Counted from the first letter of the stretch, positions 7,108 through 58,569 are shown. The stretch: 64,000 bases of DNA from an uncultured Bacilli bacterium (GCA_934089255.1 CAKOJI010000001.1:14572-78571), one strand, 5' to 3'. Numbers and translations: made by a program. The notes: generated from the sequence alone by a model not told the origin.

Positions 7108-9261
7108 ATGAAAAACAAGAAAGGTTTTACAATAATAGAAATAATTGTTTGTATTGCTTTAATAGTATCAATTGCTGCTATTTCAATAATTACTATTAAT
7201 AAAAATAATGAAAATGCTAAAAAGGAATCAAAACTTGTTAATGAAGTAATTAATAGTAGTTTAGTTTATTATGATAAACATACAATAAATGAAAATGATC
7301 TTATTGAAAAAAATGGATATACAACTATATACATAGATAATTTAATAAATGATGGACTAATAGATGAAAAATATTATAATTCAATAGAGAAAACAACTAA
7401 TTTTGATTTTGGAAGAATTCTTATTTCCTATGATTTTTCAACAGGTATGAGAAATGTTTACTATCCTTATTCTGATAATGAAAAAAATAGCACTATTTTT
7501 AAAACTATATATTTACAAAATGGAGAAGAATTTGATTGTAATGCTAAAGATATAATTGAAAATAAAATTTTAGGAGATCAGCAATATTTACAGTCTGTTG
7601 ATATTAATTCTTGCGATTCTAGTAAAATAGATTATACTAATACTAGTAACACACAATATGTTTATTTTAATTATACAGTTACAGAAACCGATGTAAAAGG
7701 TAAAACAATTTCAGTTACTAAAAAAGCAAAATTACCAGTTCAAATACTTAAACAGTTTGATGCAAATGATTTTGAATGTAATTTATATGATACAAATTAC
7801 AATTTAATAAATATTTTAAATGAAAATGAAACAAAACTATTAAATCAAAGTAGCATTAAATATTCATTTACTTTAAAAGAAGAAGATAATGATAATTTAA
7901 ATGATTACAGTAATAATTTAAATATTGAATATAAAAGTGATGATGAACCTGCTGAAAATTATAAAGGTACGTTTATAAAAAAATTAATAACTGAAGAGTT
8001 TGACAAAGAATATAATTGGACTCCGAATGTAAAAGCAATTATATATCCTAATTATTTTCCTAAAAATAAATCTGATAATATGGATATTTATGAGGAAAAT
8101 TTAAAAAGCATTGAATTATATGATATAGATTTAATTGGAAGCAAAATAAAATATATGAATGAAACACATACATATAATTTAAATTTTTACATTAATAAAT
8201 CTAATTATTCATCTATTAAAAATGATTTGGAAAGTATTGAGAAGAATTTAAATAGTCTTAAAAATGGTAAAAAATATAATTTTAATTATAATTCAATTGA
8301 TGATAAAAAAGAATTTAATTTAGAATCTTTCAAAATAAGTTGGGCTAAAGATGATGTGACCGATGTTGATACCATTGGAACTCTAGGAAACTTAATGATA
8401 TTGAATGTAACTACTAATGACGGAGATGAAAATAGCTATCATACTATACTGTATAATATGGTTGATAATTCTTATGATATTTTATTTCCACAATACTATA
8501 AACGACCACTAAAGAATTTTAAATATGATGATAACTATTTATATGCATATTATATTTATTCATATCGTAATTATAATGCGATTTATAATAATAAAAAATG
8601 TAATGGAACTACAAGACATTTTACTCAATATTTTTATGATAAATTTAAATTATTGAAAGATAATGGCTATTATTCTGGAATTGATTTAGATGATGTTGAA
8701 AGAGTTGATGATCTTAATGAAACATCATGTGGTGGATCACATGCTTATAGTCCGAATTTTAAAAAATATAATGAATTAAAAACAATTTACAATAATGAAA
8801 ATTTAAATAAAATTGGTTCTAAAGTATCTGATTTTATAAAAACTGTTAGTGATAATGACACAAAAGATATAAAAGGTGAAATACATGATAAATACAAATA
8901 TGTGATATGTAACCAAGGAAAAAATTATTGTGATGGTGGACGGTATTATCTATCAAAATCTGAAATTTATAAGAGTTACTATATGAAATATTATTATAAA
9001 TTAAACAATAGAGAGAATTATATTTTTGTATTAAATGATGATAGTGAATATATGAAAATTTATAAATATAGTTTTGGACATGATGATAATTATGATTTAA
9101 CTAATATACCTGATAATGAAGCTGATTATAATTTTGTTGTCATACCTAATGAATCATCTGATAAAGTAAAATTTTCTTCAGATATAAAAAATAACAAAAA
9201 TAATTATGTAATAACTGAATATAATATAGAGGATATAAAAAATAAAATTAATAATTTATAA
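7108..9261 (+). CDS. giant type IV prepilin-like (class III signal) protein, 717 aa
   Basis: Likely start MKNKKG|FTIIEIIVCIALIVSIAAISIITI: short basic leader, G-F cleavage site, Glu at +5, 20-aa hydrophobic helix. GGAAAGGA RBS. ATG sits 1 nt after the HerA-like stop (translational coupling). Asn/Tyr-rich body with multiple Cys pairs. Confidence 0.7.
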   Translation: MKNKKGFTIIEIIVCIALIVSIAAISIITINKNNENAKKESKLVNEVINSSLVYYDKHTINENDLIEKNGYTTIYIDNLINDGLIDEKYYNSIEKTTNFDFGRILISYDFSTGMRNVYYPYSDNEKNSTIFKTIYLQNGEEFDCNAKDIIENKILGDQQYLQSVDINSCDSSKIDYTNTSNTQYVYFNYTVTETDVKGKTISVTKKAKLPVQILKQFDANDFECNLYDTNYNLINILNENETKLLNQSSIKYSFTLKEEDNDNLNDYSNNLNIEYKSDDEPAENYKGTFIKKLITEEFDKEYNWTPNVKAIIYPNYFPKNKSDNMDIYEENLKSIELYDIDLIGSKIKYMNETHTYNLNFYINKSNYSSIKNDLESIEKNLNSLKNGKKYNFNYNSIDDKKEFNLESFKISWAKDDVTDVDTIGTLGNLMILNVTTNDGDENSYHTILYNMVDNSYDILFPQYYKRPLKNFKYDDNYLYAYYIYSYRNYNAIYNNKKCNGTTRHFTQYFYDKFKLLKDNGYYSGIDLDDVERVDDLNETSCGGSHAYSPNFKKYNELKTIYNNENLNKIGSKVSDFIKTVSDNDTKDIKGEIHDKYKYVICNQGKNYCDGGRYYLSKSEIYKSYYMKYYYKLNNRENYIFVLNDDSEYMKIYKYSFGHDDNYDLTNIPDNEADYNFVVIPNESSDKVKFSSDIKNNKNNYVITEYNIEDIKNKINNL

Positions 9262-16905: not shown

Positions 16906-17255
16906 AAATATATATATATAATATTTAGTATTATTATACTTAGTATTATATTTATATTAATTAAAAAGATTACGTAGAAAAATAACACCCTATATTACAT
17001 ATAAAAAAGTAATTATTAAATAAAAATATTATTAGTATAAAATTAATATATAATAATAAATATGAAGATTTAAGTAATATAATATAACGTTAAACGTATA
17101 AATTCTTTATCTATTATGTTAAATTAAGAACTTCATATAATATATATTATGTTAACTTCTATATTTTAAATAAAAAGATGATTAGTTGATAATTAAAACT
17201 ACACCATCTTTTTTTATTTATAATTAATAAGTTTTATAACCTGTACAATATTAAA

Positions 17256-18987: not shown

Positions 18988-19854
18988 CTAATTTCTAGGA
19001 AAATATTCCATATAATCACTTTTTAACTTTTGATTAGATAAATGAGTATATATTTGAGTAGTACTTATACTTTCATGGCCTAAAAATTCTTGTATAATTC
19101 TTAAATCTGCACCATTTTCTAACATATGAGTTGCAATACTATGTCTTAATGTATGAGGAGAAACATCTTTTTTTATATTAGCTTCTAACGTCCTTTTTTT
19201 TAACATTTTAAAAACGCCTTGCCTAGTCATTTTTTTACCATGATTATTTAAATAGACATAATTATTTTGTTCTTTTTTAACTAAACAATGTCTATAATCT
19301 TTTACATATATTTTTAAGTATTTAATTGCAGTATCGTTAATAGGGACAATTCTTTCTTTACTACCCTTCCCCATTATTCTAACAATACAATCGTTTAAAT
19401 CAATATTTTTAAATTCTAAATTTACAAGTTCACTTATTCTTAATCCTGTTGCATATAATAGTTCTAATAATGATTTATTTCTAGCGCTGAATGCATCTTT
19501 AATTTCAATATTTAATAATTTATCTATTTCATCTATAGTTAGATAAGTGGGTAAATGTTTTTTTAACTTAGGACTATCAATTAATAATATAGGATTTTCT
19601 TTTAACATTCCAATTTTTATATAATAATTATAAAATGTTTTAAAACTACTTAGGTAATTGCTAATACTACTTGATTCTAAATTTAAACTAGAAATAAAAT
19701 GCTCTATATCTTTGCTACTTAATTTTAATAAATCTTTATTTATATTATTTGATAAAATACTTAAATTATTTTGATAAGTATTAATAGTATTTTTAGAATA
19801 ATTTAAATCCATTTCTAAATATAATAAAAAATCATTTATATAATTGTCATTCAT
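18988..19854 (-). CDS. tyrosine recombinase XerC/XerD family
   Basis: C-terminal HTLRHSIATHMLENGADLRIIQEFLGHESISTTQIYTHL (R-H-R-Y catalytic core), 288 aa. Confidence 0.8.
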   Translation of the reverse strand: MNDNYINDFLLYLEMDLNYSKNTINTYQNNLSILSNNINKDLLKLSSKDIEHFISSLNLESSSISNYLSSFKTFYNYYIKIGMLKENPILLIDSPKLKKHLPTYLTIDEIDKLLNIEIKDAFSARNKSLLELLYATGLRISELVNLEFKNIDLNDCIVRIMGKGSKERIVPINDTAIKYLKIYVKDYRHCLVKKEQNNYVYLNNHGKKMTRQGVFKMLKKRTLEANIKKDVSPHTLRHSIATHMLENGADLRIIQEFLGHESISTTQIYTHLSNQKLKSDYMEYFPRN

Positions 19855-31349: not shown

Positions 31350-33503
31350 TTATTTTATAGTGTAAGGATTTGTTTTTGTTCCATTTCCACTAGAAATTTG
31401 TATTCCTGATTTTAAATTTATTGTAGGTCTAAAAGTAGCTTCAGATTGAACAGAATATCCCAAAGATACATCAAAATTACCTTCATCCCCATATGTAAAT
31501 ACATAATCGTTCCAAGCAATATCAAGATAAACATTAGGAGAAATAGACCACCAAATTAATTTATTATTTTTCGCATAATTATTCAGCAAATAATGAGTGT
31601 AATTAGGTGCATCAGTAGTGCCTGCAAAAGACATTTCATCTGCTGTTAATGTTCCTACATATATTTCAGTATTATCATTATATTTATTTATTTTTGTTCC
31701 TGTACAGATTAGTGACGGCTTCTTATTTGTATAAATTCGTGTATTTGTTGCATAACAATAATCAGTATTCTCATTATAAAAACTACAAGAAGCGCCATTG
31801 TCATCAAAACATAAATTATTTGTTTTTAAATAATTGCTTACTGATTTACCAGTTCCTACTTTTGTTCCTAACATGGTTTGGAAATTTTTTAATGAATCAA
31901 AAAGTCCAACAAATCCATCTTCCTTTCCACCTGTATTATTTAAAAAGTCAAGAGATTTACAATCACTAGCTCCTTCATAACCATATACAATAGTATTTCC
32001 ATCACTCCAGTTACCAGTGTATGAAGAACTATTACATTCTGCACTTCTATCTTCTAATATTAACTTTGTAGAACCATCACCTTCAATTCTTACAATTTTC
32101 CAACACATTCCTGCAAAATTTACATAATTATCTTTAACGTCGCCTCTATAATAATAACTTGTTCCATTATCGTCTGGAGTTATACTTAAGGTACTCTCTC
32201 TAGATTCTGTTTTTAATGAACTACTACTTATTGTTGAATATTTTATAGTAGTTGTTATATCAGAAACATTAGTTGATATTTTATATATAAAATTTTGATT
32301 TTGAGTATCTGATAAAGTTGGTTTATCATAACTCCGTACTGCATATTTTCCTACTAAATTACTAACCATTGATGTTGTATATTTACTAGTTGCAACTATT
32401 GGATTTACCAAAGTAAATTTGCCAGTATTTTCATCAACTGTATAATCATCTGCATATGAAATATAATAATTGGTTGCACTACTCCATGATGAAGTGAATG
32501 ATGTTGGATCAGTTCCTTTTAAAACTTTTGAGGAAGATTCTTCAGCAGGTTTAGTTTTAGGTGTTTTTAAAAACTCTGTTCCATTTGTTTTATTTTTTGC
32601 ATTAGTTAATATATTATAAGCAAGTGTTCCTTCTTCAAATGGCATATAATCTTTTACATCACCTATATCAGTTGTTAATGTACTTGATATATTTGTTATA
32701 TTTATACTTATTGTTTGTGTATCACTTGTTACTGTTATCACATCTCCATTTACACTAGATGTAGAACCTTTATTGATTGTTATTTGTTTACTTCCTTTTA
32801 TTGTTCCTTTAGAATCTTTTACATATAAAGTATGAACTCCTGGTTCTACTGCTGGTATAAAATATTTGTTATCTCTTATTTGACTTGTTTTTGGATTACT
32901 TTGCATTTCTACATAGTCTCCGCTTGTTGCATTTGTAACATTACCAGTTATATCAACTATATCTGCTAAGTTATATATTTGTACTTTTGCAGATATGGTT
33001 TTATTCATATCTTCACTTTGATCTATATTCATTTCTTTATAGACTACTTTTAATTCATAACTTTGTGTTTCATTTACATCTATATTATTTGTTACAAGCA
33101 TTCCATTTTGTGTTGGAAATGATGTTTCAGTTTTACCATTACAAGTCTTTCCACTCACACTACTTGTACAAGTTAAAGTATATACCATATCACTTGTTCT
33201 ACTTAGTGTATTTACTAATTCTTCTAAATATACTGCATAGTTGTTTACAGTTGCATTTCCTTCATTTTTAACTGTAAACGTTTTAGTATCTATTGTTGTA
33301 CCAGGCTGTATTTTTTCTGCAGTTATATCCCCGTTTCCATCTCCGTATGTTAATTTTAAATCTGCTGTTGTAACACTTATAGATTTAGTATTTGTGTTAC
33401 CTTGTATTCTAGTTAAAAAGTATGCATATGTTAATCCTACAAGTATTAGTAACACTATAAATATTCCTGTTACACTTATTATAATCTTTTGTTTTCTATT
33501 CAT
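31350..33503 (-). CDS. large secreted protein: SipW-cognate-type signal, TasA/camelysin-like N-domain, shared C-terminal module (paralog P1)
   Basis: MNRKQKIIISVTGIFIVLLILVGLTYAYF resembles the SipW-cognate class signal (GGGT[FW]A[AF]F pattern). Following segment LKLTYGDGNGDITAEKIQPGTTIDTKTFTVKNEGNATVNNYAV is TasA-like. C-terminus YYYRGDVKDNYVNFAGMCWKIVRIEGDG...GNGTKTNPYTIK. GGAAGGTGAG RBS. Confidence 0.7.
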   Translation of the reverse strand: MNRKQKIIISVTGIFIVLLILVGLTYAYFLTRIQGNTNTKSISVTTADLKLTYGDGNGDITAEKIQPGTTIDTKTFTVKNEGNATVNNYAVYLEELVNTLSRTSDMVYTLTCTSSVSGKTCNGKTETSFPTQNGMLVTNNIDVNETQSYELKVVYKEMNIDQSEDMNKTISAKVQIYNLADIVDITGNVTNATSGDYVEMQSNPKTSQIRDNKYFIPAVEPGVHTLYVKDSKGTIKGSKQITINKGSTSSVNGDVITVTSDTQTISINITNISSTLTTDIGDVKDYMPFEEGTLAYNILTNAKNKTNGTEFLKTPKTKPAEESSSKVLKGTDPTSFTSSWSSATNYYISYADDYTVDENTGKFTLVNPIVATSKYTTSMVSNLVGKYAVRSYDKPTLSDTQNQNFIYKISTNVSDITTTIKYSTISSSSLKTESRESTLSITPDDNGTSYYYRGDVKDNYVNFAGMCWKIVRIEGDGSTKLILEDRSAECNSSSYTGNWSDGNTIVYGYEGASDCKSLDFLNNTGGKEDGFVGLFDSLKNFQTMLGTKVGTGKSVSNYLKTNNLCFDDNGASCSFYNENTDYCYATNTRIYTNKKPSLICTGTKINKYNDNTEIYVGTLTADEMSFAGTTDAPNYTHYLLNNYAKNNKLIWWSISPNVYLDIAWNDYVFTYGDEGNFDVSLGYSVQSEATFRPTINLKSGIQISSGNGTKTNPYTIK

Positions 33504-33700: not shown

Positions 33701-35089
33701 TTATTCTATAACGTAAGGATCTTCTTTAGTACCTAACCCTGTAACTGTAACATTATTTTTTATATTTATTACAGGTCTAACATTTAATTCGTTTTCTACA
33801 TCACTTGCTTCTATACCCGTCTTACTATTAAATCCTACTACTTTAGCACAATTATTATCAAAACTATATGGTGTCATAGTCCACCAATTAGTACCATTAT
33901 TTAAATAAGTTTCTGTTTTATTTGAAGTAGCATAATACAATTCTTCAGCACTTAATAATCCAATATTAAGTTCATATTTAGAAAAATCTAAATCATTACA
34001 AATTAATATTTTATCATTAGAAGTGTATTTGTATAATGTTTCATTTTTACCATACCCTAAATAAGTTTCTATAATACCTTTATTACCACAATAACTATTT
34101 TTTACAATACTATTATAATTAATAAGTTCTGTACTATAAAAATTATCTAACGTATTCTTTATAACACTATTATTAACATTTTTATGTGTTAATTCATAAC
34201 TACTACTATTTACATCCCCATACGTATAACCAACATAAGCATTATCATTATTTAATGAATTAAATTTACTTAATCCAATAGTATCATCTAATATTAAACG
34301 TACAGTATCATTACCATTAATTCTAACTATTCTCCATAACTTATCAGCTATCAAAACATAATTATTATTAACGTTTCCCTTATAATAATAAGTTACTCCA
34401 TAATTATCTTCTATTTTATATAAATTAGATTCAATATTACTATCAATATCTAATTCAGGATTAATTGGTAATTCTACTATATTTCTTGATTTTAATATAG
34501 TTTCAATAGTAGGTAAAATATTTGTTTTATTATAATTTATTTCATTAATATATTTATTTATAATTTTATATTGTAAAGATTCTTTATTATTTTCATATAA
34601 TTCATTACTATATTCTATATCATATTTATTAACACTATTTATATTATTTATTTTTAAATAGTTATCTATATCATAATTTAATGTAGTATAATTACTATCT
34701 AATTTAAAATCAACTACTATATCTTTATCACTTAAATTACTTACTTTTAAATATATATCTTTTTCTTCTGATTCATTTAAAGAACCATATATATTGTTAT
34801 TAGTAGTATTAACTACTGATACAGAAAAATTATCATTAGATGTAGCAATTAAGCCATAATTAATACTAACTTTACTTGTATTTTTTATTTTTTCTTTAAT
34901 AACGTATTCTTTATTAGCTTCCAAATTTAAACTAGTAATACTTAAATCAGTAGTTATAGTAGGTACTGTAGACGTTACTACATCTTTTTCTTCAGTTTGG
35001 ACAAATAAACTATAACTTAAATTTAATACATAACAACCTAATATCATAACAATTGCACTTAGAAAATATATTTTTTTAGTCTTGTTCAT
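33701..35089 (-). CDS. secreted protein with SipW-cognate-like signal and the shared C-terminal module (P3)
   Basis: MNKTKKIYFLSAIVMILGCYVLNLSYSLF..., then YYYKGNVNNNYVLIADKLWRIVRINGND...GLGTKEDPYVIE at the C-terminus. AGGAG RBS. Confidence 0.65.
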   Translation of the reverse strand: MNKTKKIYFLSAIVMILGCYVLNLSYSLFVQTEEKDVVTSTVPTITTDLSITSLNLEANKEYVIKEKIKNTSKVSINYGLIATSNDNFSVSVVNTTNNNIYGSLNESEEKDIYLKVSNLSDKDIVVDFKLDSNYTTLNYDIDNYLKINNINSVNKYDIEYSNELYENNKESLQYKIINKYINEINYNKTNILPTIETILKSRNIVELPINPELDIDSNIESNLYKIEDNYGVTYYYKGNVNNNYVLIADKLWRIVRINGNDTVRLILDDTIGLSKFNSLNNDNAYVGYTYGDVNSSSYELTHKNVNNSVIKNTLDNFYSTELINYNSIVKNSYCGNKGIIETYLGYGKNETLYKYTSNDKILICNDLDFSKYELNIGLLSAEELYYATSNKTETYLNNGTNWWTMTPYSFDNNCAKVVGFNSKTGIEASDVENELNVRPVINIKNNVTVTGLGTKEDPYVIE

Positions 35090-44475: not shown

Positions 44476-47109
44476 TTACTTTTGACTATTTAACTTTATA
44501 GCAGCTTGAGCAGCAGCAAGTCTAGCAATTGGAACTCTAAATGGAGAACAAGATACATAATCAAGTCCTATATTATGACAGAATTCAACACTTGCTGGAT
44601 CTCCACCATGTTCACCACATATACCAACATGTAAGTTTTCATTAACTGGTTTACCTAACTTAATAGCCATTTCCATTAATTTACCTACACCTTTTTGATC
44701 TAATTTAGCAAATGGATCATTTTCAAAGATTTTAGTATCATAGTAAGCTCCTAAGAATTTACCAGCATCATCTCTTGAAAAACCATAAGTCATTTGAGTT
44801 AAATCATTTGTACCAAAGCAGAAGAAATCAGCGTCTTTAGCAATTTCATCAGCAGTAAGTGCAGCACGTGGTATTTCGATCATAGTACCAACTTTATAAT
44901 CTAATTTAACATTAGCATCTTTAATTTCTTTATCAGCAGTTTCAACTACTATATCTTTAACATATTTTAATTCTTTTTCTTCACAAACAAGTGGAATCAT
45001 TATTTCTGGAACAACTTTCCAATCAGAATGTTTCTTTTGAACATTAATTGCAGCACGAATAACTGCTTTTGTTTGCATTTTTGCAATTTCTGGATAAGTT
45101 ACTGCTAATCTACATCCACGATGTCCCATCATTGGATTTACTTCGTGTAATGAAGATATTAAATTTTTAATATATTCAACACTCTTGCCTTGAGTTTTTG
45201 CAAGTTTTTCTATATCTTCTTCAGTTGTTGGAACAAATTCATGTAGAGGTGGATCTAAGTATCTAATAGTTACTGGACATCCTTCTAATGCTTCGTATAA
45301 TTCTTCAAAATCACCTTGTTGATATGGAAGAATTTTATCTAATGCGGCTTCTCTTTCCTCAACAGTATCAGCACAAATCATTTCTCTACATGCAGCAATT
45401 CTATCACTTTCAAAGAACATGTGTTCTGTACGACAAAGCCCAATTCCTTCAGCACCTAATTCACGAGCTTTTTTAGCATCTTTTGGAGTATCAGCATTTG
45501 TTTTAACTTTTAATGTTCTGAATTCATCAGCCCAAGCCATAACTCTACCAAATTCTCCTGCAATTTTTGCATCAACAGTTTTAATTAAACCATCATAGAT
45601 ATTTCCAGTTGTACCATCTAATGAAATACAGTCACCTTCATGATAAGTTTTACCAGCTAAAGTAAACTTTTTATTTTCTTCATCCATAACTATTTCGCCA
45701 CAACCAGATACACAACAAGTACCCATACCACGAGCAACAACTGCAGCATGACTTGTCATTCCTCCACGAACAGTTAGAATACCTTGACTCGCTTTCATAC
45801 CTGTAATATCCTCTGGAGATGTTTCTAAACGAACTAGAACAACTTTTTCTCCTCTTTCATGCCATACCTCAGCATCTTCAGCAGTAAATACAATCTTACC
45901 ACAAGCAGCACCTGGGGATGCACCTAAACCTTTACCAATAGGAGTAGCTTTCTTTAATTCTGTTGCATCAAATTGTGGATGTAATAATGTATCTAAATTT
46001 CTTGGATCTATCATTGAAACAGCTTCTTCAGGAGTACGCATTCCTTCATCAACTAAATCACAAGCAATTTTTAAAGCAGCTTGAGCAGTTCTTTTACCGT
46101 TTCTTGTTTGTAACATATAAAGTTTTCCATGTTCAACAGTAAATTCCATATCTTGCATATCTCTATAATGACTTTCTAAAGTCTTGCAAACTTCTTTAAA
46201 TTCTTTAAATGCTTCTGGAAATTTTTGTTCCATTTCAGCTATATGCATTGGAGTTCTAACTCCCGCAACAACATCTTCACCTTGCGCATTAGTTAAGAAT
46301 TCACCAAATAAACCTTTTTCTCCAGTTGCAGGATCTCTTGTAAATGCAACACCTGTTCCACAATCATCACCCATGTTACCGAATGCCATTGATTGTACAT
46401 TTACTGCAGTTCCCCATGAATAAGGAATATCATTATCTCTTCTATAAACATTTGCACGAGGATTATCCCAAGATCTAAATACAGCTTTTACAGCACCCAT
46501 TAATTGTTCTTTTGGATCAGTTGGGAACTCACTACCGATTTTAGATTTGTATTCTTCTTTAAATAAACGAGCTAATTCTTTTAAGTCATCAGCATCAAGT
46601 TCAATATCTTGAGTAACTCCTTTTTTCTCTTTCATTTCATCAATAAGTTGTTCAAAGTATTTTTTACCAACTTCCATAACAACATCTGAATACATTTGAA
46701 TAAATCTTCTATAACAATCCCATGCCCATCTTGGATTATTAGATTTTGTAGCAATAGCTTCTACAACTTCTTCATTTAAACCTAAATTAAGAATTGTATC
46801 CATCATACCAGGCATACTAGCTCTAGCACCACTACGAACAGATACTAATAATGGATTTTCTTTATCTCCAAATTTCTTTCCAGTTGTTTCTTCTAATTTT
46901 GTAATGTATTCATTGATTTGTCCTTGAATTTCATCACTAATTTCTCTACCGTCATCATAGTACTTAGTACAAGCTTCAGTAGTAATAGTAAAACCTTGAG
47001 GTACAGGTAAACCAATACTAGTCATTTCTGCTAAATTAGCACCCTTTCCACCTAAAAGGTTTCTCATATCTTTATTTCCTTCTTTAAAGGAATATACATA
47101 TTTTGTCAT
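44476..47109 (-). CDS. ppdK: pyruvate, phosphate dikinase
   Basis: Full-length PPDK (GGKGANLAEM, ...TSHAAVVARGMG... phospho-His region, C-terminal PEP-utilising domain). Higher GC than surroundings, consistent with a highly expressed gene. Confidence 0.9.
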   Translation of the reverse strand: MTKYVYSFKEGNKDMRNLLGGKGANLAEMTSIGLPVPQGFTITTEACTKYYDDGREISDEIQGQINEYITKLEETTGKKFGDKENPLLVSVRSGARASMPGMMDTILNLGLNEEVVEAIATKSNNPRWAWDCYRRFIQMYSDVVMEVGKKYFEQLIDEMKEKKGVTQDIELDADDLKELARLFKEEYKSKIGSEFPTDPKEQLMGAVKAVFRSWDNPRANVYRRDNDIPYSWGTAVNVQSMAFGNMGDDCGTGVAFTRDPATGEKGLFGEFLTNAQGEDVVAGVRTPMHIAEMEQKFPEAFKEFKEVCKTLESHYRDMQDMEFTVEHGKLYMLQTRNGKRTAQAALKIACDLVDEGMRTPEEAVSMIDPRNLDTLLHPQFDATELKKATPIGKGLGASPGAACGKIVFTAEDAEVWHERGEKVVLVRLETSPEDITGMKASQGILTVRGGMTSHAAVVARGMGTCCVSGCGEIVMDEENKKFTLAGKTYHEGDCISLDGTTGNIYDGLIKTVDAKIAGEFGRVMAWADEFRTLKVKTNADTPKDAKKARELGAEGIGLCRTEHMFFESDRIAACREMICADTVEEREAALDKILPYQQGDFEELYEALEGCPVTIRYLDPPLHEFVPTTEEDIEKLAKTQGKSVEYIKNLISSLHEVNPMMGHRGCRLAVTYPEIAKMQTKAVIRAAINVQKKHSDWKVVPEIMIPLVCEEKELKYVKDIVVETADKEIKDANVKLDYKVGTMIEIPRAALTADEIAKDADFFCFGTNDLTQMTYGFSRDDAGKFLGAYYDTKIFENDPFAKLDQKGVGKLMEMAIKLGKPVNENLHVGICGEHGGDPASVEFCHNIGLDYVSCSPFRVPIARLAAAQAAIKLNSQK

Positions 47110-47223
47110 ATCTCTACCCTCCATATTTATCTGACTTATTTAGTATAACAAAACATCAAAAAAAATACAACGATTTAACCCTTTAAATTTTATTTTATAT
47201 AAATCATAGTTCAATAAACTATA

Positions 47224-47256
47224 TATAAAATAAAAATACTGTATTTAAATACAGTT
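47224..47256 (-). terminator. rho-independent terminator after pilin-like gene P4
   Basis: Perfect palindrome ACTGTATTTAAATACAGT followed by T-run on the minus strand. Confidence 0.6.
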
Positions 47257-47263
47257 TTTAATT

Positions 47264-48481
47264 TTAAGAACAATTATTGATTAACTCATAAGGCTCATCT
47301 TTAGTACCTTCACTATTTGTAAAATTATAACAATTTTTCAATTTAATAATTGGCACTATATATAACTTAACATCTTTACAAACGCTATATTCAAACCTTC
47401 TATCTACATTATGTGGATTCACAAATAATAAATCATCATTACCTTCTTCAGCAGATGCAATGTATTGAAATAATGCGTAAGTTCCCACTGATAAAATATA
47501 TTCATCATCATTTTTTGTATATTTACTAAGTAAATCTATTATATAATTTCCATCATTACTATTAGCATTTTTAAGTGTTTCTACATCAATTAGTCCAATA
47601 TTCGTTTCATAAGTTTGATATCTAGTATAAGATGATTTATCTGGCATATATGTTTCAAATACTTTTTGTCTAAATTTTTCAGGATAATTTGAATACTCAT
47701 TTATATATGTATGCCAATTATTATTATAATCAAAATAGGTATCACCAGCTTTGAAAACATCTATACCAGTAACATATTTTATATTTAATTTACTATCATT
47801 TATACTCATATTTGTACATTCTCCTAAAACACTCCAATCATTACTTGTACAACTTTTACTTACAAGTTCTTTGGGAGTTAATTTTATTACACTTTCTTTA
47901 TCATTTGCTATTAAAAAGACATTTCCATTAGTAATTTCTACTATACGCCATAATCTTTCATTTAATTTCACAAAATTTTTAGGATTTTCTCCTTTTGCTA
48001 CATAGTCTTCCTTATTTGTTATAGCATTATTAGAAGAAACGCCATTATCTCTAGGACATATATATATTACTTTGCTACCATCTAGTTCTTTTAAATCCCA
48101 TTTTTTAAACACTTCTATTCCTATAACATTATTTTCACAATCAAATTTTCCAGCTGTTGCTAATACTGCATTAGATAACATAAAGTAATTTTCTTTATAA
48201 TCTACTTTCATATCATCTTTTATTAACCCTTCATTTTTTAATGTTTCCAAAGTTACTAAAGCAGCTTTCGCATTTTTATTTAAATTAGTTGTGATTTCTT
48301 TATGATTTGAAACATAAACTTGTAATGCATTTTCTAACTTTTTTTCATTTGCTTTCAATATATTAATTTCTCTTGTTTTATTAGTTTTTAAAACTACAAC
48401 GGTTACGGAAACACCTATAATTACAATTAAACTAATACATATAATAATTTCAATTAATGTAAAACCTCTTTTATTCTTCAT
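47264..48481 (-). CDS. type IV prepilin-like protein with shared C-terminal module (P4, 405 aa)
   Basis: MKNKRG|FTLIEIIICISLI class III signal. Later ...LNERLWRIVEITNGNVFLIANDKE...EGTKDEPYELINNCS. Confidence 0.7.
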   Translation of the reverse strand: MKNKRGFTLIEIIICISLIVIIGVSVTVVVLKTNKTREINILKANEKKLENALQVYVSNHKEITTNLNKNAKAALVTLETLKNEGLIKDDMKVDYKENYFMLSNAVLATAGKFDCENNVIGIEVFKKWDLKELDGSKVIYICPRDNGVSSNNAITNKEDYVAKGENPKNFVKLNERLWRIVEITNGNVFLIANDKESVIKLTPKELVSKSCTSNDWSVLGECTNMSINDSKLNIKYVTGIDVFKAGDTYFDYNNNWHTYINEYSNYPEKFRQKVFETYMPDKSSYTRYQTYETNIGLIDVETLKNANSNDGNYIIDLLSKYTKNDDEYILSVGTYALFQYIASAEEGNDDLLFVNPHNVDRRFEYSVCKDVKLYIVPIIKLKNCYNFTNSEGTKDEPYELINNCS

Positions 48482-48488
48482 AGTATCC

Positions 48489-48674
48489 CTACTTACTTAT
48501 TTTATTATTTTTTTCTTCAAAATTTATTTCTTTATTTTCTATCTTTTCCTTAACATCAGTAAGTTCTTCTTTATCCATTTCATCTATTACTTCATCTTCT
48601 TTATGTTCTTTTGCTTTTTTTAAAAACAATTCTTTTTCTTCTTCACTTAATATACCATCTTTAAAATTTATCAT
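48489..48674 (-). CDS. acidic 61-aa protein (copy A)
   Basis: MINFKDGILSEEEKELFLKKAKEHKEDEVIDEMDKEELTDVKEKIENKEINFEEKNNKISK; AGAAGGAGAA RBS; 100% identical to 50354..50539. Confidence 0.55.
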   Translation of the reverse strand: MINFKDGILSEEEKELFLKKAKEHKEDEVIDEMDKEELTDVKEKIENKEINFEEKNNKISK

Positions 48675-48714
48675 ACCTATTCTCCTTCTAAAATAATTAT
48701 ACTATATTTATTAT

Positions 48715-48829
48715 TTATTTTCTAGGTATAGTATGTAAATATACTCTTTTTAATTCTTCATTGGACACATGAGTATATATACTAGTAGTAGATAAAGATA
48801 CATGACTTAAAAGTTCTTGAACACTTTTT
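48715..48829 (-). pseudogene. 3'-terminal remnant (38 codons) of tyrosine recombinase gene within a direct repeat
   Basis: Identical (1 mismatch) to the 3' end of the recombinase at 50580..50694; similarity ends abruptly at 48830. Confidence 0.7.
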
Positions 48830-48915
48830 TATTAAAAAATACATATTTCGTAATAGTACGCAAGTATAAAATGATAAAAAAATAAGGTTTTACCTAGGAC
48901 AGCATTTTACTTATT

Positions 48916-50346
48916 TTATTCACTTATGATATATGGATCAGTTTTAGTTCCATTCCCACTTAGAACTTTTATATTATCATTAATAACATAGGCAACTCTA
49001 ACGTATGTATACTGAAGAGCACTATGAACACCATCTTCTCCTGGACTTTCTGCTATATCCACATCGAAAGTTAATTCATCTTCAATACTACCATAATCAA
49101 ATAAATTTAAATAATCAACTTCATATTTTATATGTTTGGGATTATATATACCAGATCTTAAATATTCTTGATATGTAAGTAGTCCAAAATCAGATGATAC
49201 TTTAGTTTCGCTATTGCATTTAAAATTTGTTAAATTATTTTTATTAATATTAGTGTCATAACTATCGCCACACCATTTATAATTTTTATTTATATATTTT
49301 GTTAACATATTTTGTATATTATCTTCATAATGAGTTTTAAGTGGTTTATAAACATATTCATATACAGGACTACTTAATGTTACAGTTTCTTGACAATATT
49401 CCCTACTACTAGTAGTTTCACATACTAAAACTTGTTCTGTACTGTCACTCCAACTTTCTATCTCCTTTGTATCATTGTTTGCTTTACAAGAACATCTCGT
49501 TGATTTATTAGGATAAAGATGAGTTATTGAATATTTAGAAGTATCAATTCTACCATAATTTGAATTTCCACTGTAACTAGTAAAAAAATATACAGAAGCA
49601 CCATTAGTAAGAACATTATTATTAGATAAAAGAATTTTTTCATCTTCAATAATCTTAATACCATCATTCTCAGTAGTTCTAACTATTCTAAATAACTTAT
49701 CTAATCCTTCAAATTTAATATAGTTATTATCAACTTTTCCCTTAAAATAATAAATATCTTCTAAATTTTCATCATCACTAATATTTTTTCCATGTGATAA
49801 ACACAAACTATTAGTTTCTAAACTATTTTCACAGTTAGTATTATATCCTTGTTTTAACATCTTATTAATTAAAAGTGATTCATCACTACTACCACTTTTA
49901 TTAGAATTATAAGGACATAAATAAACTACATTATCTTTTTTTGTTTCCCAATTAACTGTATACTCAAGCACATTAGCTCCACATTCTTTATCTGTAGAAC
50001 CTTTTATAGAATTAGTAATCCAAACTAAATAAGATTTATCATCTTCTAATTTATATTCTTTTTCTAAAGTTTTATATAATTTTTCATCTACATAACCTTT
50101 ATTTACTAATTCACTTACATTAATTCTAGCACCTTTACCACCATTATTTATTCCATACTCATATGTATTTCCTTGATCATCTTTTTCAGTAGCAATATAA
50201 ACATTTGCTGCTTCTAATATTTTCTTAGTTATATTACTATAATCTTTATTTTTAGTAAAAATTACTATACTTATGGTAGATATAATAGCAATTAAACTAA
50301 TACATATAATAATTTCAATTAATGTAAAACCTCTTTTATTCTTCAT
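48916..50346 (-). CDS. type IV prepilin-like protein with shared C-terminal module (P5, 476 aa)
   Basis: MKNKRG|FTLIEIIICISLI; C-terminus YYFKGKVDNNYIKFEGLDKLFRIVRTTENDG...GNGTKTDPYIISE. Confidence 0.7.
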   Translation of the reverse strand: MKNKRGFTLIEIIICISLIAIISTISIVIFTKNKDYSNITKKILEAANVYIATEKDDQGNTYEYGINNGGKGARINVSELVNKGYVDEKLYKTLEKEYKLEDDKSYLVWITNSIKGSTDKECGANVLEYTVNWETKKDNVVYLCPYNSNKSGSSDESLLINKMLKQGYNTNCENSLETNSLCLSHGKNISDDENLEDIYYFKGKVDNNYIKFEGLDKLFRIVRTTENDGIKIIEDEKILLSNNNVLTNGASVYFFTSYSGNSNYGRIDTSKYSITHLYPNKSTRCSCKANNDTKEIESWSDSTEQVLVCETTSSREYCQETVTLSSPVYEYVYKPLKTHYEDNIQNMLTKYINKNYKWCGDSYDTNINKNNLTNFKCNSETKVSSDFGLLTYQEYLRSGIYNPKHIKYEVDYLNLFDYGSIEDELTFDVDIAESPGEDGVHSALQYTYVRVAYVINDNIKVLSGNGTKTDPYIISE

Positions 50347-50694
50347 AGTATCCCTACTTACTTATTTTATTATTTTTTTCTTCAAAATTTATTTCTTTAT
50401 TTTCTATCTTTTCCTTAACATCAGTAAGTTCTTCTTTATCCATTTCATCTATTACTTCATCTTCTTTATGTTCTTTTGCTTTTTTTAAAAACAATTCTTT
50501 TTCTTCTTCACTTAATATACCATCTTTAAAATTTATCATACCTATTCTCCTTCTAAAATAATTATACTATATTTATTATTTATTTTCTAGGTATAGTATG
50601 TAAATATACTCTTTTTAATTCTTCATTGGACACATGAGTATATATACTAGTAGTAGATAAAGATACATGACCTAAAAGTTCTTGAACACTTTTT
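50289..50694. repeat. 406-bp direct repeat copy B
   Basis: See copy A. Confidence 0.85.
50354..50539 (-). CDS. acidic 61-aa protein (copy B)
   Basis: Identical to 48489..48674. Confidence 0.55.
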   Translation of the reverse strand: MINFKDGILSEEEKELFLKKAKEHKEDEVIDEMDKEELTDVKEKIENKEINFEEKNNKISK

Positions 50695-51449
50695 AAATCA
50701 CATCCCTCATTTAATAACATAGTAGCAAAAGAATGTCTAAACGTATGTGGTGTAACTAATAAATCACTACTAGACTTTAATAATACCTTATCAATAATAT
50801 CTCTAACTCCTCTTGTAGTTAATTTATTACCTAAATGATTCACTAATAAATATTCACACTTTTTATTTTTTAAAATAGAATCTCTTACTCTTAAATAATT
50901 ATTCAAACTATCTATAGCATAACTTCCTAAATATACTATACGTTCTTTATTACCTTTACCAAGTACTTTAATTTCTCGATTTGTAATATCAATATTACAT
51001 AATTTTATATTAACAAGTTCATTAACTCTACACCCAGTACAAAGTAATAATTCAAATATACACCTATTCCTCATACCTAAATTACTATTAGTATCTATAC
51101 TATCTAATATCTTAACATATTCATCATATTTAAAATAATTTGGTAACTTTTTTTCTTTACTCATACTATTAACTAATTTAAATGGATTATTTTTAACAGA
51201 TTTATTTTTTATTAAATAATCATAATACATTCTTAAACTACTTAAACTTCTATTTATACTAGATGGTTTATGTGTTTGTTTCAAATAAGATATATAACTT
51301 AAAACATCTTTATATTGAATACTATTATAACTCTTATTAACATTTTTTAAATATTCTTCAAACTTATTAATATCTATCTCATAATTTAATACAGTATTAT
51401 CACTATATTTTTTAATACTAGTTAAATAATTTAAAAATTCTTCTAACAT
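50580..51449 (-). CDS. tyrosine site-specific recombinase (Xer/integrase family), directly upstream of pilin cassettes
   Basis: [39 protein letters not shown] catalytic C-terminus; 289 aa. Confidence 0.8.
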   Translation of the reverse strand: MLEEFLNYLTSIKKYSDNTVLNYEIDINKFEEYLKNVNKSYNSIQYKDVLSYISYLKQTHKPSSINRSLSSLRMYYDYLIKNKSVKNNPFKLVNSMSKEKKLPNYFKYDEYVKILDSIDTNSNLGMRNRCIFELLLCTGCRVNELVNIKLCNIDITNREIKVLGKGNKERIVYLGSYAIDSLNNYLRVRDSILKNKKCEYLLVNHLGNKLTTRGVRDIIDKVLLKSSSDLLVTPHTFRHSFATMLLNEGCDLKSVQELLGHVSLSTTSIYTHVSNEELKRVYLHTIPRK

Positions 51450-51511: not shown

Positions 51512-52360
51512 CTATTTAGAGTCTTCTTTAGGTCTTTTTATTAACATTTTACCACTTTGATATAGGGTTCTTTTTAATTCGTTCTCTGTTATAGGTTTAA
51601 TATAATCATGTCCATCAACTACCCCATCACTTGTATCAAATTTATAATCCTTTAATATTTCTTTACAAGATCTTATTACATCTTCTTCAGTTAAGAATTC
51701 TTCTTCATCAAATAATACTTCTACCGTCTCTTTTCTTTTAAATACATTTTTATCATCAATATCTAAGAAAGAAAGTGGTCTATTTTCATTTATAATGCCA
51801 TTTATATACATTGTCTTAATAACAAATTCTCTTATAGCAGAATATTTTGTTTTTACTTCATTATTCTTAAGTTTTGAATAAAACTCAGCATTTATAAAAC
51901 TAGTTACTAAACTACTTAAATATTCTCTCTCATCATAACCAGAAATATCATATATATTATCAATTTTAGATACAGCATAAGTATATAATCCATTTACTTT
52001 AGGCAAAAAACCATCTTTATTTTTATATTTTTTAGCATACATTTTACTTAATATTAACAATTTTTTAGGATTATCTTTATACTCTCTAAACATTTTATTA
52101 ACGTAATCAATACTAATCTTATTTTTAGAATCACTAAATAATAATATATCTCCATCATATATAATCTTTTTTTTAGATTTATTATAAACGTACACTTTAT
52201 ATATATTATCACTTATACCATTATTAAGTTTTATATCAGCAATTAATTCTCTCTCACTATCAAATTTAGTTGTATAATTATCAATACTTTGTAAACTATC
52301 TAAATCTCCAATTAATTTAATTTCTTTATTTTTTATATAACATAAACTATATTTATTCAT
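51512..52360 (-). CDS. hypothetical protein (282 aa)
   Basis: ORF only. Confidence 0.4.
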   Translation of the reverse strand: MNKYSLCYIKNKEIKLIGDLDSLQSIDNYTTKFDSERELIADIKLNNGISDNIYKVYVYNKSKKKIIYDGDILLFSDSKNKISIDYVNKMFREYKDNPKKLLILSKMYAKKYKNKDGFLPKVNGLYTYAVSKIDNIYDISGYDEREYLSSLVTSFINAEFYSKLKNNEVKTKYSAIREFVIKTMYINGIINENRPLSFLDIDDKNVFKRKETVEVLFDEEEFLTEEDVIRSCKEILKDYKFDTSDGVVDGHDYIKPITENELKRTLYQSGKMLIKRPKEDSK

Positions 52361-52455: not shown

Positions 52456-52532
52456 TGGTGGAGAATAAGGGACTCGAACCCTTGACCCCCACGGTGCAAG
52501 CGTGATGCTCTAGCCAACTGAGCTAATTCCCC
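52456..52532 (-). tRNA. tRNA-Ala (anticodon UGC)
   Basis: Reverse complement GGGGAATTAGCTCAGTTGGCTAGAGCATCACGCTTGCACCGTGGGGGTCAAGGGTTCGAGTCCCTTATTCTCCACCA: cloverleaf with G3:U70, anticodon TGC, encoded CCA. Confidence 0.9.
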
Positions 52533-56406: not shown

Positions 56407-58569
56407 CTATGATATTACGTAAGGATTTGAAATAGTTCCGTTTCCACCAGTTATTTGAACTCTAGACAAGAGAGTTACTGCGGAACGAGAATAGACATCG
56501 TCATAATTGACTGAACTGCTGCCAAGAAATCCAACTTCAGAAAGTTGATAAGCGTCACCGATACCACTATTAGCAATATAGTAAAAAGAAGAAAGCCCCC
56601 ACCACGTTAAGGGATTATTCCTTGTATAACTATTCATTAAATAATGAGTAGAATTAAGTGAACCAGTAGCACCTGCAAACGACATTTCATCTGCTGTTAG
56701 TGTTCCTACATACATATCTGAATCATCTTTATATTTATTTAATTTTGTTCCTTTACACACTAGTGATGGTTTTTTATCTACTTCTATTCTTTTATAAGCA
56801 CCATAATATTCATCAGTATACCAGCCATTTGTTGCTTCATTTTCTTCATATACAATATTATCATTATCATCGAACCCATAACTTTCAGTACTAGCCACGC
56901 TATGATCAAAACACCAGTTGTCTACTTTCAAATAATCACTTAATGATTTATTAGTTGTTAATTTAGAACTTAATGTCGTTTGAAAACTCTTTAATGAGTC
57001 TGCTAATCCTCCAGAATAATTTAAAAAGTCTGCTTTACCATTTGTATCATAACCAAATGCAACTTTTGTTCCATCACTCCAATTTCCAGTATATGACGAA
57101 CTATTACATTCTGTATTTCTATCTTCTAATATAAGTTTTGTAGAACCGTCTCCCTCAATTCTTACAATTCTCCAACACATTCCTGCAAAGTTTACATAGT
57201 TATCTTCTACTCCACCTCTATAATAATAACTTGTTCCATAATCATCTGCAGTTACGCTTAATTCTTTTTCTGTAGATTTTTGATCTGCAATTATGTTTGC
57301 ATATTTTATGTTAGAAGTTATATCAGATACATTAGTTGATATTTTATATATATAATTTTGATTTTGAGTATTTGTTATTGTTGGTTTATTAGTACTCCAT
57401 ACTGCATATTTTCCTGCTAAACTACTTGCCAGTGATGTTGTATATTTACTAGTTGCAACTGTTGGATTTACTAAAGTAAATTTACCAGTTGTTTCGTTTA
57501 CAGTATAATCATCTGCATATGAAATATAATAATTTGTTGCGTTCCATAATGTTGAGGTAAATGATGTCGGAGCAGTTCCTTTTAAATATAAAATTGAACT
57601 TGTTTCTTCCGCAGGATTTGTTTTAGGGGTTTTTAAAAACTCTGTTCCATTTGTTTTATTAATTGCATTAGTTAATATATTATAAGCAAGTGTCTCTTCT
57701 TCAAATGGCATATAATCTTTTACATCACCTATATCAGTTGTTAACGTACTTGAAATACTCGTTATATTTATGCTTATTGTTTGTGAATCACTTGTTACTG
57801 TTATCACATCTCCATTTACACTAGATGTAGAACCTTTATTTATTGTTATTTGTTTACTTCCTTTTACAGTGCCTTTAGAATCTTTTACATATAGTGTATG
57901 AACTCCTGGTTCTACTGCTGGTATAAAATATTTGTTATCTCTTATTTGACTTGTTTTTGGCGTACTTTGCATTTCTACATAATCTCCTGTTGCTGCATTT
58001 GTTACTGTTCCTGTTATATCAACTATGTCTGATAAGTTATATATTTGTACTTTTGCTCCAATAGTCTTATTCATGTCTTCACTTTGATCTATATTCATTT
58101 CTTTATAGACTACTTTTAATTCATAACTTTGTGTTTCGTTTACATCTATATTATTTGTTACTAGCATACCATTTTGTGTTGGAAATGATGTTTCAGTTTT
58201 ACCATTACAAGTTTTTCCACTTACACTACTTGTACAAGTTAAAGTATATACCATATCACTTGTACGGCTTAATGTATTTACTAACTCTTCTAAGTACACT
58301 GCATAATTATTTACAGTTGCATTTCCTTCATTTTTAACTGTAAACGTTTTAGTGTCTATTGTAGTACCTGGTTGTATCTTTTCTGCAGTAATATCACCAT
58401 TACCGTCTCCGTATGTTAGTTTAAGATCTGCTGTTGTAACACTTATAGACTTAGTATTAGTATTTCCTTGTATTCTTGTTAGAAAGTATGCATAAGTTAA
58501 TCCTACAAGTATTAGTAACACTATAAATATTCCTGTTACACTTACTATAATTTTCTGTTTACGATTCAT
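56407..58569 (-). CDS. large secreted protein, paralog P2 of 31350..33503
   Basis: Signal and TasA-like N-domain are ~95% identical to P1 over the first ~300 aa (of ~480 aa of colinear similarity) and ~80% over the remainder up to ~480. C-terminal ~230 aa diverge but keep the WRIVRIEGDG...GNGTISNPYVIS module. Confidence 0.7.
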   Translation of the reverse strand: MNRKQKIIVSVTGIFIVLLILVGLTYAYFLTRIQGNTNTKSISVTTADLKLTYGDGNGDITAEKIQPGTTIDTKTFTVKNEGNATVNNYAVYLEELVNTLSRTSDMVYTLTCTSSVSGKTCNGKTETSFPTQNGMLVTNNIDVNETQSYELKVVYKEMNIDQSEDMNKTIGAKVQIYNLSDIVDITGTVTNAATGDYVEMQSTPKTSQIRDNKYFIPAVEPGVHTLYVKDSKGTVKGSKQITINKGSTSSVNGDVITVTSDSQTISINITSISSTLTTDIGDVKDYMPFEEETLAYNILTNAINKTNGTEFLKTPKTNPAEETSSILYLKGTAPTSFTSTLWNATNYYISYADDYTVNETTGKFTLVNPTVATSKYTTSLASSLAGKYAVWSTNKPTITNTQNQNYIYKISTNVSDITSNIKYANIIADQKSTEKELSVTADDYGTSYYYRGGVEDNYVNFAGMCWRIVRIEGDGSTKLILEDRNTECNSSSYTGNWSDGTKVAFGYDTNGKADFLNYSGGLADSLKSFQTTLSSKLTTNKSLSDYLKVDNWCFDHSVASTESYGFDDNDNIVYEENEATNGWYTDEYYGAYKRIEVDKKPSLVCKGTKLNKYKDDSDMYVGTLTADEMSFAGATGSLNSTHYLMNSYTRNNPLTWWGLSSFYYIANSGIGDAYQLSEVGFLGSSSVNYDDVYSRSAVTLLSRVQITGGNGTISNPYVIS

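Follow-up and report, generated by a model that had tools for sequence, protein, structure and literature searches.

A 64-kb stretch of DNA from an uncultured Bacilli bacterium (GCA_934089255.1, CAKOJI010000001.1:14572-78571; its full length is referred to here as the window) carries two neighboring genes for large type IV pilin-like proteins of 405 and 476 residues. Each gene is headed by the same 61-codon open reading frame (ORF), orf61, inside a 406-bp direct repeat, and both lie downstream of a gene for an XerC-like tyrosine recombinase. Comparison with related gut-metagenome contigs showed that the locus is a strain-variable slot for a pilin-like gene, located between the XerC-like gene (with orf61) and ppdK, and that two allele families, the 405-type and the 476-type, occupy it. 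We consider it highly probable that this slot is hypervariable through homologous exchange of alleles, that the two alleles were stacked in a one-off event, that the duplicated flank has undergone gene conversion, and that a unit of 1865 bp can be removed by homologous recombination. No new mechanism is revealed; the processes are of known kinds (an allelic pilin locus and a gene-converted duplication), found here in an unstudied gut lineage and in an uncharacterized modular protein family. The data document presence/absence and allele polymorphism of a large pilin-like protein in natural human-gut populations. The lineage concerned consists of uncultured, small-genome Bacilli (metagenome-assembled genomes, MAGs, titled Bacilli or Tenericutes), and the locus appears to be a clean example from nature of alleles being stacked, after which the duplicated flank evolved in concert.

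Repeat anatomy and population states of the slot

All genes of the locus lie on the minus strand, in the order tRNA-Ala, a conserved 282-aa protein, the recombinase, orf61, the 476-aa pilin-like protein, a second orf61, the 405-aa pilin-like protein, and ppdK (Table 1). MAFFT alignment and BLAST confirmed the near-perfect repeat that the original prediction had described, with copies at 48424–48829 and 50289–50694, starts 1865 bp apart and a single mismatch; a BLAST-type search revealed no third copy within the 64-kb window. Read along the minus strand, each copy opens with the final 115 nt of the recombinase gene (37 codons and the stop codon), followed by a 40-nt spacer that holds a promoter-like TAGAAA-17-TATAAT sequence, the identical 61-codon ORF, 7 nt, and the initial 58 nt, or 19 codons, of a prepilin-type gene. 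ORF calls and alignment also bore out that the recombinase gene is complete only upstream of copy B, at 50580–51449, and that copy A bears a truncated, non-coding remnant (48715–48829), in which the sole mismatch between the copies changes LGH to LSH. At the repeat edge, the alignment of the two copies switches abruptly from 100% identity to unalignable DNA.

The window has a G+C content of 23%, and at this composition a promoter/terminator scan was of little use (54 sites found versus 52.8 expected). A consensus promoter, TTGACA-17-TATAAT with a TG, precedes the gene for the 282-aa protein (52412–52384). The terminator-like hairpin after the 405-type gene is absent from a strict terminator scan because its stem has fewer than three G–C pairs.

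The arrangement was compared across approximately 30 gut-metagenome contigs from different samples, with flanks 95 to 100% identical to the window. Look-ups of exact proteins place the locus in human-gut metagenomes, Hadza samples included, and the nearest genomes are MAGs titled uncultured Bacilli or Tenericutes, in which the identity of the recombinase is at most 76%. Four states of the slot were found, meaning that the arrangement is not fixed and that the alternative cassettes suspected in related strains do exist. At least 13 contigs carry the 405-type gene alone, in variants of 402 to 407 aa, and when aligned to the window these loci lack precisely one 1865-bp unit, leaving a clean gap; strains of this kind had been predicted by the earlier suggestion that RecA-type recombination could delete the unit. 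The 476-type gene, encoding 476 or 478 aa, occurs alone on six contigs (L023, L024, L085, L087, L088, and L090), where it is followed by a hairpin terminator of its own and then by ppdK. Four contigs have neither gene: here, orf61 is followed by a 17-codon pilin stub with a stop codon and then by the 476-type terminator, a state that is an internal deletion of the 476-type allele. Both genes are stacked in three assemblies, namely the window, L003/L011 (99.8% identical), and L025 (98.9%), and this independent recurrence of the layout shows that the repeat is real and not a duplication error. A pattern of four locus states (no gene, one gene of either type, or both genes) is that expected under phage or host selection.

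The 406-bp flank is present on every contig whose sequence covers the region; it reaches pilin codon 19, or codon 17 in the four stub contigs. Because the flank is common to all loci, the right repeat edge marks the point at which the alleles diverge species-wide and is not a trait of the duplication. The flank haplotypes of the window and L025, both of which are stacked, differ at 31 of 1707 positions (1.8%), which exceeds the difference between the window and several single-cassette strains. Cassette type does not follow flank haplotype, indicating homologous exchange at the locus. Of the processes named in the original prediction, cassette exchange is in this way supported by the occurrence of the two gene bodies as alternative alleles, and gene conversion by variants shared between the copies in L025 (see below), whereas recombinase-mediated shuffling is not, since no orientation variants were seen and no sites were found at the edges. 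No third cassette type and no triple array were present among the loci examined.

The allelic pilins of Pseudomonas aeruginosa, pilA groups I to V, lie between pilB and a tRNA-Thr gene. As in that system, one slot with conserved flanks holds alleles that cannot be aligned outside their common N-terminal signal/helix codons, allele type is shuffled with respect to strain background, and gene content at the slot varies by strain. The locus described here differs in that a single strain has two stacked alleles and that the 406-bp flank, into which a neighboring gene extends, is duplicated along with them. It also differs in that the proteins, with 405 to 476 residues, are three times larger and that no assembly genes are nearby.

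The orf61 protein was found in identical form in 86 blocks of the collection searched and in 22 of 22 contigs read; the nucleotide differences from L002 are accordingly synonymous, because the protein is identical. Homologues with 41 to 63% identity come after the recombinase gene in related species. Two contigs from different samples, L013 and L014, both stop at the same nucleotide in the 476-aa gene (codon 360, ~49267), and this common end may mark a branch that a paralogous or strain-variable segment created in the assembly graph. A scan of Joint Genome Institute (JGI) metagenomes for the orf61–pilin junction sequence gave zero matches.

Table 1. Features of the pilin-like locus and of the predicted Xer/dif system in the window
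Feature	Coordinates	Strand	Remarks
Canonical dif site	17130..17157	+	ACTTCATATAATATATATTATGTTAACT; 25/28 to B. subtilis dif; 0/100 shuffles match
Second Xer paralogue, XerD-like	18988..19854	-	288 aa; best match XerD, 316.8 bits; passes NF001399
ppdK (pyruvate phosphate dikinase)	44476..47124	-	Pfam and synteny; conserved downstream flank of the variable slot
Putative terminator-like hairpin after 405-type gene	47226..47259	-	A+T-rich stem, then T-run; read from sequence
405-type pilin-like gene	47264..48481	-	405 aa; N_methyl 27.6 bits
Repeat copy A	48424..48829	-	406 bp; 48715-48829 is recombinase remnant, no ORF called there
orf61 copy 2	48489..48674	-	Identical to copy 1
Junction filler	48830..48898	.	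69 nt; inverted decayed pilin start on + strand, 48855-48893
Native 3' flank of 476-type allele	48899..48915	-	17 nt; last stretch in common with single-476 strains
476-type pilin-like gene	48916..50346	-	476 aa; N_methyl 31.3 bits, TIGR02532 27.6 bits; ends GNGTKTDPY
Repeat copy B	50289..50694	-	406 bp: recombinase 3' end, promoter-like spacer, orf61, 19 pilin codons
orf61 copy 1	50354..50539	-	Small acidic protein; no Pfam or NCBIfam match
XerC-like tyrosine recombinase	50580..51449	-	289 aa, intact; final 115 nt within repeat copy B
Conserved 282-aa protein	51512..52360	-	No family match; upstream of recombinase
tRNA-Ala	52456-52532	-	Upstream end of locus

The stacking junction and the duplicated flank

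Homology between the window and the single-476 strains (L023, L087, and others) stops 17 nt past the stop codon of the 476-type gene. Beyond that point, the window has 69 nt (48830–48898) that occur in neither single-allele form, followed by the recombinase remnant. The same 69-nt filler junction is present in all three stacked assemblies (the window, L003, and L025) and, because they have this junction in common, stacking arose once. The left repeat edge is thus one illegitimate junction inside the 3' end of the recombinase gene, made via the filler. At the junction in the recombinase gene, there is no more than a short A-rich microhomology, as is typical of illegitimate joining.

Within the filler, positions 48855–48893 on the plus strand read as a decayed, inverted pilin start, ATGATAAAAAAATAAGGTTTTAC; it contains an in-frame stop and points toward the end of the 476-aa gene. 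This segment matches a true pilin start at 28 of 39 positions; just four sites in the window reach at least 25/39, and the other three are genuine pilin starts. The inverted pilin start is a real scar of an earlier rearrangement. A short-word BLAST search of the window and all fetched loci gave no donor for the filler, the lone partial match (24/28) being to a different pilin gene start, that of L019, in reverse complement.

The two repeat copies within one genome differ at one position in the window, at one in L025, and at five in L003. Both L025 copies have A at repeat positions 64 and 178, where both window copies have G and T, respectively. The identity of the copies at position 64 does not stem from protein selection, because the sequence there is non-coding recombinase remnant. 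In L003, all five differences fall between positions 11 and 28, a cluster at the remnant's left edge, and at two of them the base is that of the divergent L009 lineage. These sequence patterns indicate probable gene conversion between the copies, with variable tract ends. Concerted evolution by gene conversion is known from Neisseria pilE/pilS and from duplicated tuf genes, and here, too, duplicates are near-identical within a genome while lineages diverge, and the copies share private variants. Unlike in those systems, it is the conserved flank that is homogenized and not the variable part, and no promoterless silent donors were found in the window: tblastn with 32 family proteins returned only full-length genes, with no promoterless fragments near the locus.

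These observations are best accommodated in the following scheme. The slot between the XerC-like gene (with orf61) and ppdK holds a large modular type IV pilin-like gene, drawn in this species from two unrelated-looking allele families that have the upstream flank and the first 19 codons in common. A single recombination event would have stacked both alleles, one of its ends lying in the common flank and the other being illegitimate, such that the 476-type gene with 17 nt of its own 3' flank became joined, through the 69-nt filler, to a point 115 nt before the recombinase stop codon. This event would have duplicated 406 bp of the flank and left each pilin gene with a promoter-like region, orf61, a ribosome-binding site (RBS), and the signal-peptide codons. 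RecA-type gene conversion would have kept the copies nearly identical afterward, and recombination between them could delete, and in principle re-insert, the 1865-bp unit. The order of events and the dependence on RecA are what we infer from the present-day layouts. Because each gene retains the promoter-like region, orf61, RBS, and signal codons, both are probably expressed, and co-expression of two pilin-like variants is likely, as opposed to switching between them.

One variant of this scheme concerns the fate of the unit after stacking. The 1865-bp unit might move as a circle or a transformed fragment and enter by a Campbell-type single crossover in the 406-bp flank, in which case stacking would have been gained repeatedly. 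The unit consists of exactly one repeat and one gene body, as such a process would have it, and the stacked layout occurs on flank haplotypes 1.8% apart, a larger distance than that between some single-cassette strains and the window. Vertical inheritance with repeated loss fits the same data, however, no circle junction was observed, and a third cassette or triple array was not seen; we regard repeated gain as unlikely.

The XerC-like recombinase and rival explanations

The recombinase matches Pfam Phage_integrase (149 bits) and Phage_int_SAM_1, the SAM-like N-domain (62 bits), and its R-K-H-R-H-Y catalytic set is intact, with the motifs GCRVNEL, GKGNKER, HTFRHS, LLGH, and IYTH. XerC is its best NCBIfam match, with 300.2 bits against a cut-off of 335.15, and XerD follows with 280.8 against 329.6. 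The window contains a second, XerD-like paralogue, 39% identical to the first, and a canonical dif site (Table 1). The XerC/XerD pair CodV/RipX and dif serve chromosome dimer resolution in Bacillus subtilis, and the window has the same ingredients, that is, two Xer paralogues and a 28-bp dif (25/28) at a GC-skew switch, whereas both Xer proteins score slightly under the NCBIfam equivalog cut-offs and their activity is predicted from sequence. The site occupies an intergenic gap between convergent genes, 1.8 kb from the XerD-like gene, and coincides exactly with the maximum of cumulative GC skew; gene orientation switches there. Since dif sits where gene orientation and GC skew switch sign, the window spans the replication terminus.

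A search for orthologues of the recombinase turned up 52 species, ~24 of which have ppdK downstream; in ~19 of the latter, there is no pilin-like match in between. In strains from which the pilin gene has been deleted, the recombinase gene and orf61 are intact. Given the XerD-like partner, the dif at the terminus, the synteny with ppdK, and this integrity in the absence of a pilin gene, the recombinase is most likely a housekeeping XerC partner of the XerD-like paralogue and a bystander at the pilin locus, and the predicted Xer pair most likely acts on the dif site 30 kb away. The case calls for caution, as a tyrosine recombinase beside variable surface genes need not drive their variation.

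The R64 shufflon (with Rci) and the Mycoplasma Xer1–vpma and HvsR–vsa systems are inversion systems (PMC2268961, PMC5634654). They resemble the present locus in that a tyrosine recombinase adjoins variable surface or pilus genes whose 5' ends are conserved. Several features would be accounted for by a cassette system of the shufflon, Mycoplasma Xer1–vpma, or integron kind, driven by the recombinase and acting at the conserved pilin 5' end. The recombinase directly adjoins the pilin-like genes, and a module of the 282-aa protein, recombinase, orf61, and pilin is kept in L028 and L030. The pilin 5' end is moreover a recurrent breakpoint, at codon 19/20 (the allele boundary), at codon 17 (the stub, as in L002), and after codon 8 (the inverted stub), and the inverted remnant could be an inversion scar. 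These three breakpoints all fall at different nucleotides, however, and the left repeat edge lies within the coding sequence of the recombinase, where no site-specific system predicts it.

Systems of the R64 and Mycoplasma type depend on short inverted sites, on alternatives that lack a promoter, and on orientation variants, all of which are absent here, and their recombinases contrast with the housekeeping XerC context of this one. The cassettes are direct repeats, the sole inverted match being the decayed stub (28/39), and there is no single expression site, since each gene is complete and in direct orientation, with its own start, RBS, orf61, and promoter-like site. All of the ~30 related loci are collinear, without an inverted or orientation variant among them, and the shufflon or expression-site logic of the original prediction did not survive this comparison. 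Integron features were equally lacking. The models for integron integrases stayed far under threshold (TIGR02249, 124.9 bits versus 265; NF011946, 69.9 versus 435), no attC-like palindrome or inverted repeat was found at the cassette 3' ends, and the junction lies within the recombinase coding sequence. The best dif-like site in the 47- to 52-kb region matches at 19 of 28 positions, which is background (56 such sites across the window), so that neither a dif-like site nor an attC-like palindrome marks the edges. With the ppdK synteny in many species without a pilin-like match in between, the XerD partner and dif, and other pilin paralogues that have no recombinase, a recombinase-driven system is quite unlikely. 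It keeps some weight because the module is conserved in the nearest species and the inverted stub is unexplained.

A narrower form of this idea is that the 282-aa protein, the XerC-like recombinase, and orf61 form a dedicated device of this clade that inserts, deletes, or inverts pilin-like genes at the pilin 5' codons. If true, such a device would be a direct-repeat, integron-like counterpart of Mycoplasma Xer1, and the inverted stub a scar of its activity; we hold this to be very unlikely. Homologues of the 282-aa protein lie upstream of the recombinase gene in related species, and the complete module is found in the closest species, L028 and L030, the order being the same in L034 without an orf61 homologue. 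In L030 (4478–8421), the genes comprise p139, the recombinase, orf80 (the orf61 homologue), a 247-aa homologue of the 282-aa protein, a 531-aa pilin, and ppdK. A further pilin gene, of 827 aa, is located upstream in L030, where the recombinase module is rearranged or partly duplicated as well. Neither the 282-aa protein nor the acidic 61-aa protein belongs to an assigned family, yet both are kept beside the XerC-like gene in the nearest species.

An old tandem duplication of the orf61–pilin unit, with bodies that diverged in place while selection kept the 5' region, can draw on real homology between the two proteins. These align over residues 1 to 160 at 33% identity (BLASTP), which corrects the earlier statement that the genes are completely different past codon 19 apart from a C-terminal module. 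However, either body can be the only one in a strain of the same species, and each then has a distinct 3' flank and terminator of its own, in agreement with the original prediction that this is not a simple old duplication. In addition, identity extends to the non-coding remnant and to synonymous sites, which protein selection cannot explain, and it ends in an abrupt step from 100% to unalignable DNA, all of which makes this explanation scarcely credible. An assembly artefact, in which two co-existing single-allele strains were falsely joined in tandem, has a negligible chance of being correct: metagenome assemblies can chimerize strains and both single-allele forms are common in such samples, but joining these forms cannot yield the junction because the filler and the recombinase remnant occur in neither, and an identical junction was assembled independently in three samples with different single-nucleotide polymorphisms (SNPs).

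Several points weigh against allele exchange with one-off stacking and a gene-converted flank. The direction of change may have been stacking or later loss. In the assemblies that the analysis covered, no deletion or amplification was caught in progress within a population. The case for gene conversion consists of two common sites in one strain and a 5-SNP patch in L003. The filler and its inverted, decayed pilin start are of unexplained origin and hint at a complex history, possibly including inversion. Finally, the recombinase lies just under the NCBIfam XerC cut-off (300 versus 335) and the nearest species retain the module of the 282-aa protein, recombinase, orf61, and pilin; it is formally conceivable that the recombinase has a second role related to the pilin genes.

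The pilin-like proteins and their relatives

Both pilin-like proteins carry a type IV prepilin N-terminus. The cleavage/methylation motif (G|FTLxE), read from the sequence as KRGFTLIEIIICISLI, is followed by a hydrophobic helix. The 405- and 476-type proteins score 27.6 and 31.3 bits, respectively, with the N-terminal methylation model PF07963 (cut-off 21.2), and 22.0 and 27.6 bits with TIGR02532 (cut-off 16.3). Both end in GxGTKxxPY. The 476-type protein consists of the prepilin N-terminus, a pilin-like region of ~150 aa, and a variable C-domain, and its family comprises 32 metagenome proteins. The pilin-like family as a whole is small, occurs in metagenomes only, and has members of 350 to 750 aa built on one plan: a pilin-type N-terminus, a conserved ~150-aa region, a variable C-domain, and a terminal GxGTxxxPY.

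In the PDB, sequence and profile searches matched only the N-terminal helix of known pilins. An AlphaFold2 model, based on an alignment of 16 sequences, reached a mean predicted local distance difference test (pLDDT) score of 62.7 and showed helices at residues 9–25 and 38–53, followed by strands; Foldseek with this poor model gave no match in the PDB at E ≤ 0.001. No type IV filament machinery was found in the 64-kb window. A T2SSE ATPase gene lies near a pilin-like paralogue on the contigs carrying P0015. Pilin-like paralogues also occupy other loci that have no recombinase nearby, in the arrangements uvrC–pilin–mutS and HerA-like (DUF87)–pilin. One mosaic member of the family, P0009, was considered as a third cassette and ruled out, as it sits at a different locus; it directly follows an upstream ORF that runs off the contig end, in an arrangement like the DUF87–pilin pair of L019. 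The 405- and 476-type proteins would have a surface or filament role.

Four more genes in the window encode the same C-terminal module, at 7108–9261 on the plus strand and at 31350–33503, 33701–35089, and 56407–58569 on the minus strand. The module is marked by YYYxGxVxNNY...WRIVR near its start and GxGTxxxPYxI at its end, and its sole family match is a marginal one to DUF6273, in a paralogue. The product of 7108–9261 has a pilin-type N-terminus, and the N-terminus of the other three is a signal anchor containing a TasA/SipW-like "YAYF" motif. Judging from these modules, the six members in the window appear to form an expanded surface-protein family with interchangeable export modules. Two of the genes, 31350–33503 and 56407–58569 (717 and 720 aa), lie 25 kb apart in the same orientation and are 87 to 96% identical over the first ~900 nt, with identity decaying toward the 3' end. 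In this pair, a conserved 5' part is combined with a variable 3' part for the second time in the window, and no recombinase is adjacent. The wider family, in which pilin-type or signal-anchor N-modules are combined with a common C-module, may deserve structural and functional study.

The best functional analogy may be with PilB and PilC of Streptococcus sanguinis, which are modular type IV pilins of monoderm bacteria (PMC8179133, PMC9934059). As in the modular pilins of S. sanguinis (PMC8179133), a class III signal peptide and a pilin module are fused to a bulky, variable C-module, and the host is Gram-positive. In contrast to those pilins, the C-module here has no recognized fold or family, and the genes are scattered over the chromosome and do not form a pil operon.

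The region upstream of the tRNA-Ala gene and the gene for the 282-aa protein also varies in content. In the window, it contains YolD/DinB-like and CPBP protease genes, in L002 and L007 it contains mutL, and in L009 it contains phage lysis genes (holin and CHAP endolysin), which suggests a hot spot for prophage or island integration at or near tRNA-Ala.

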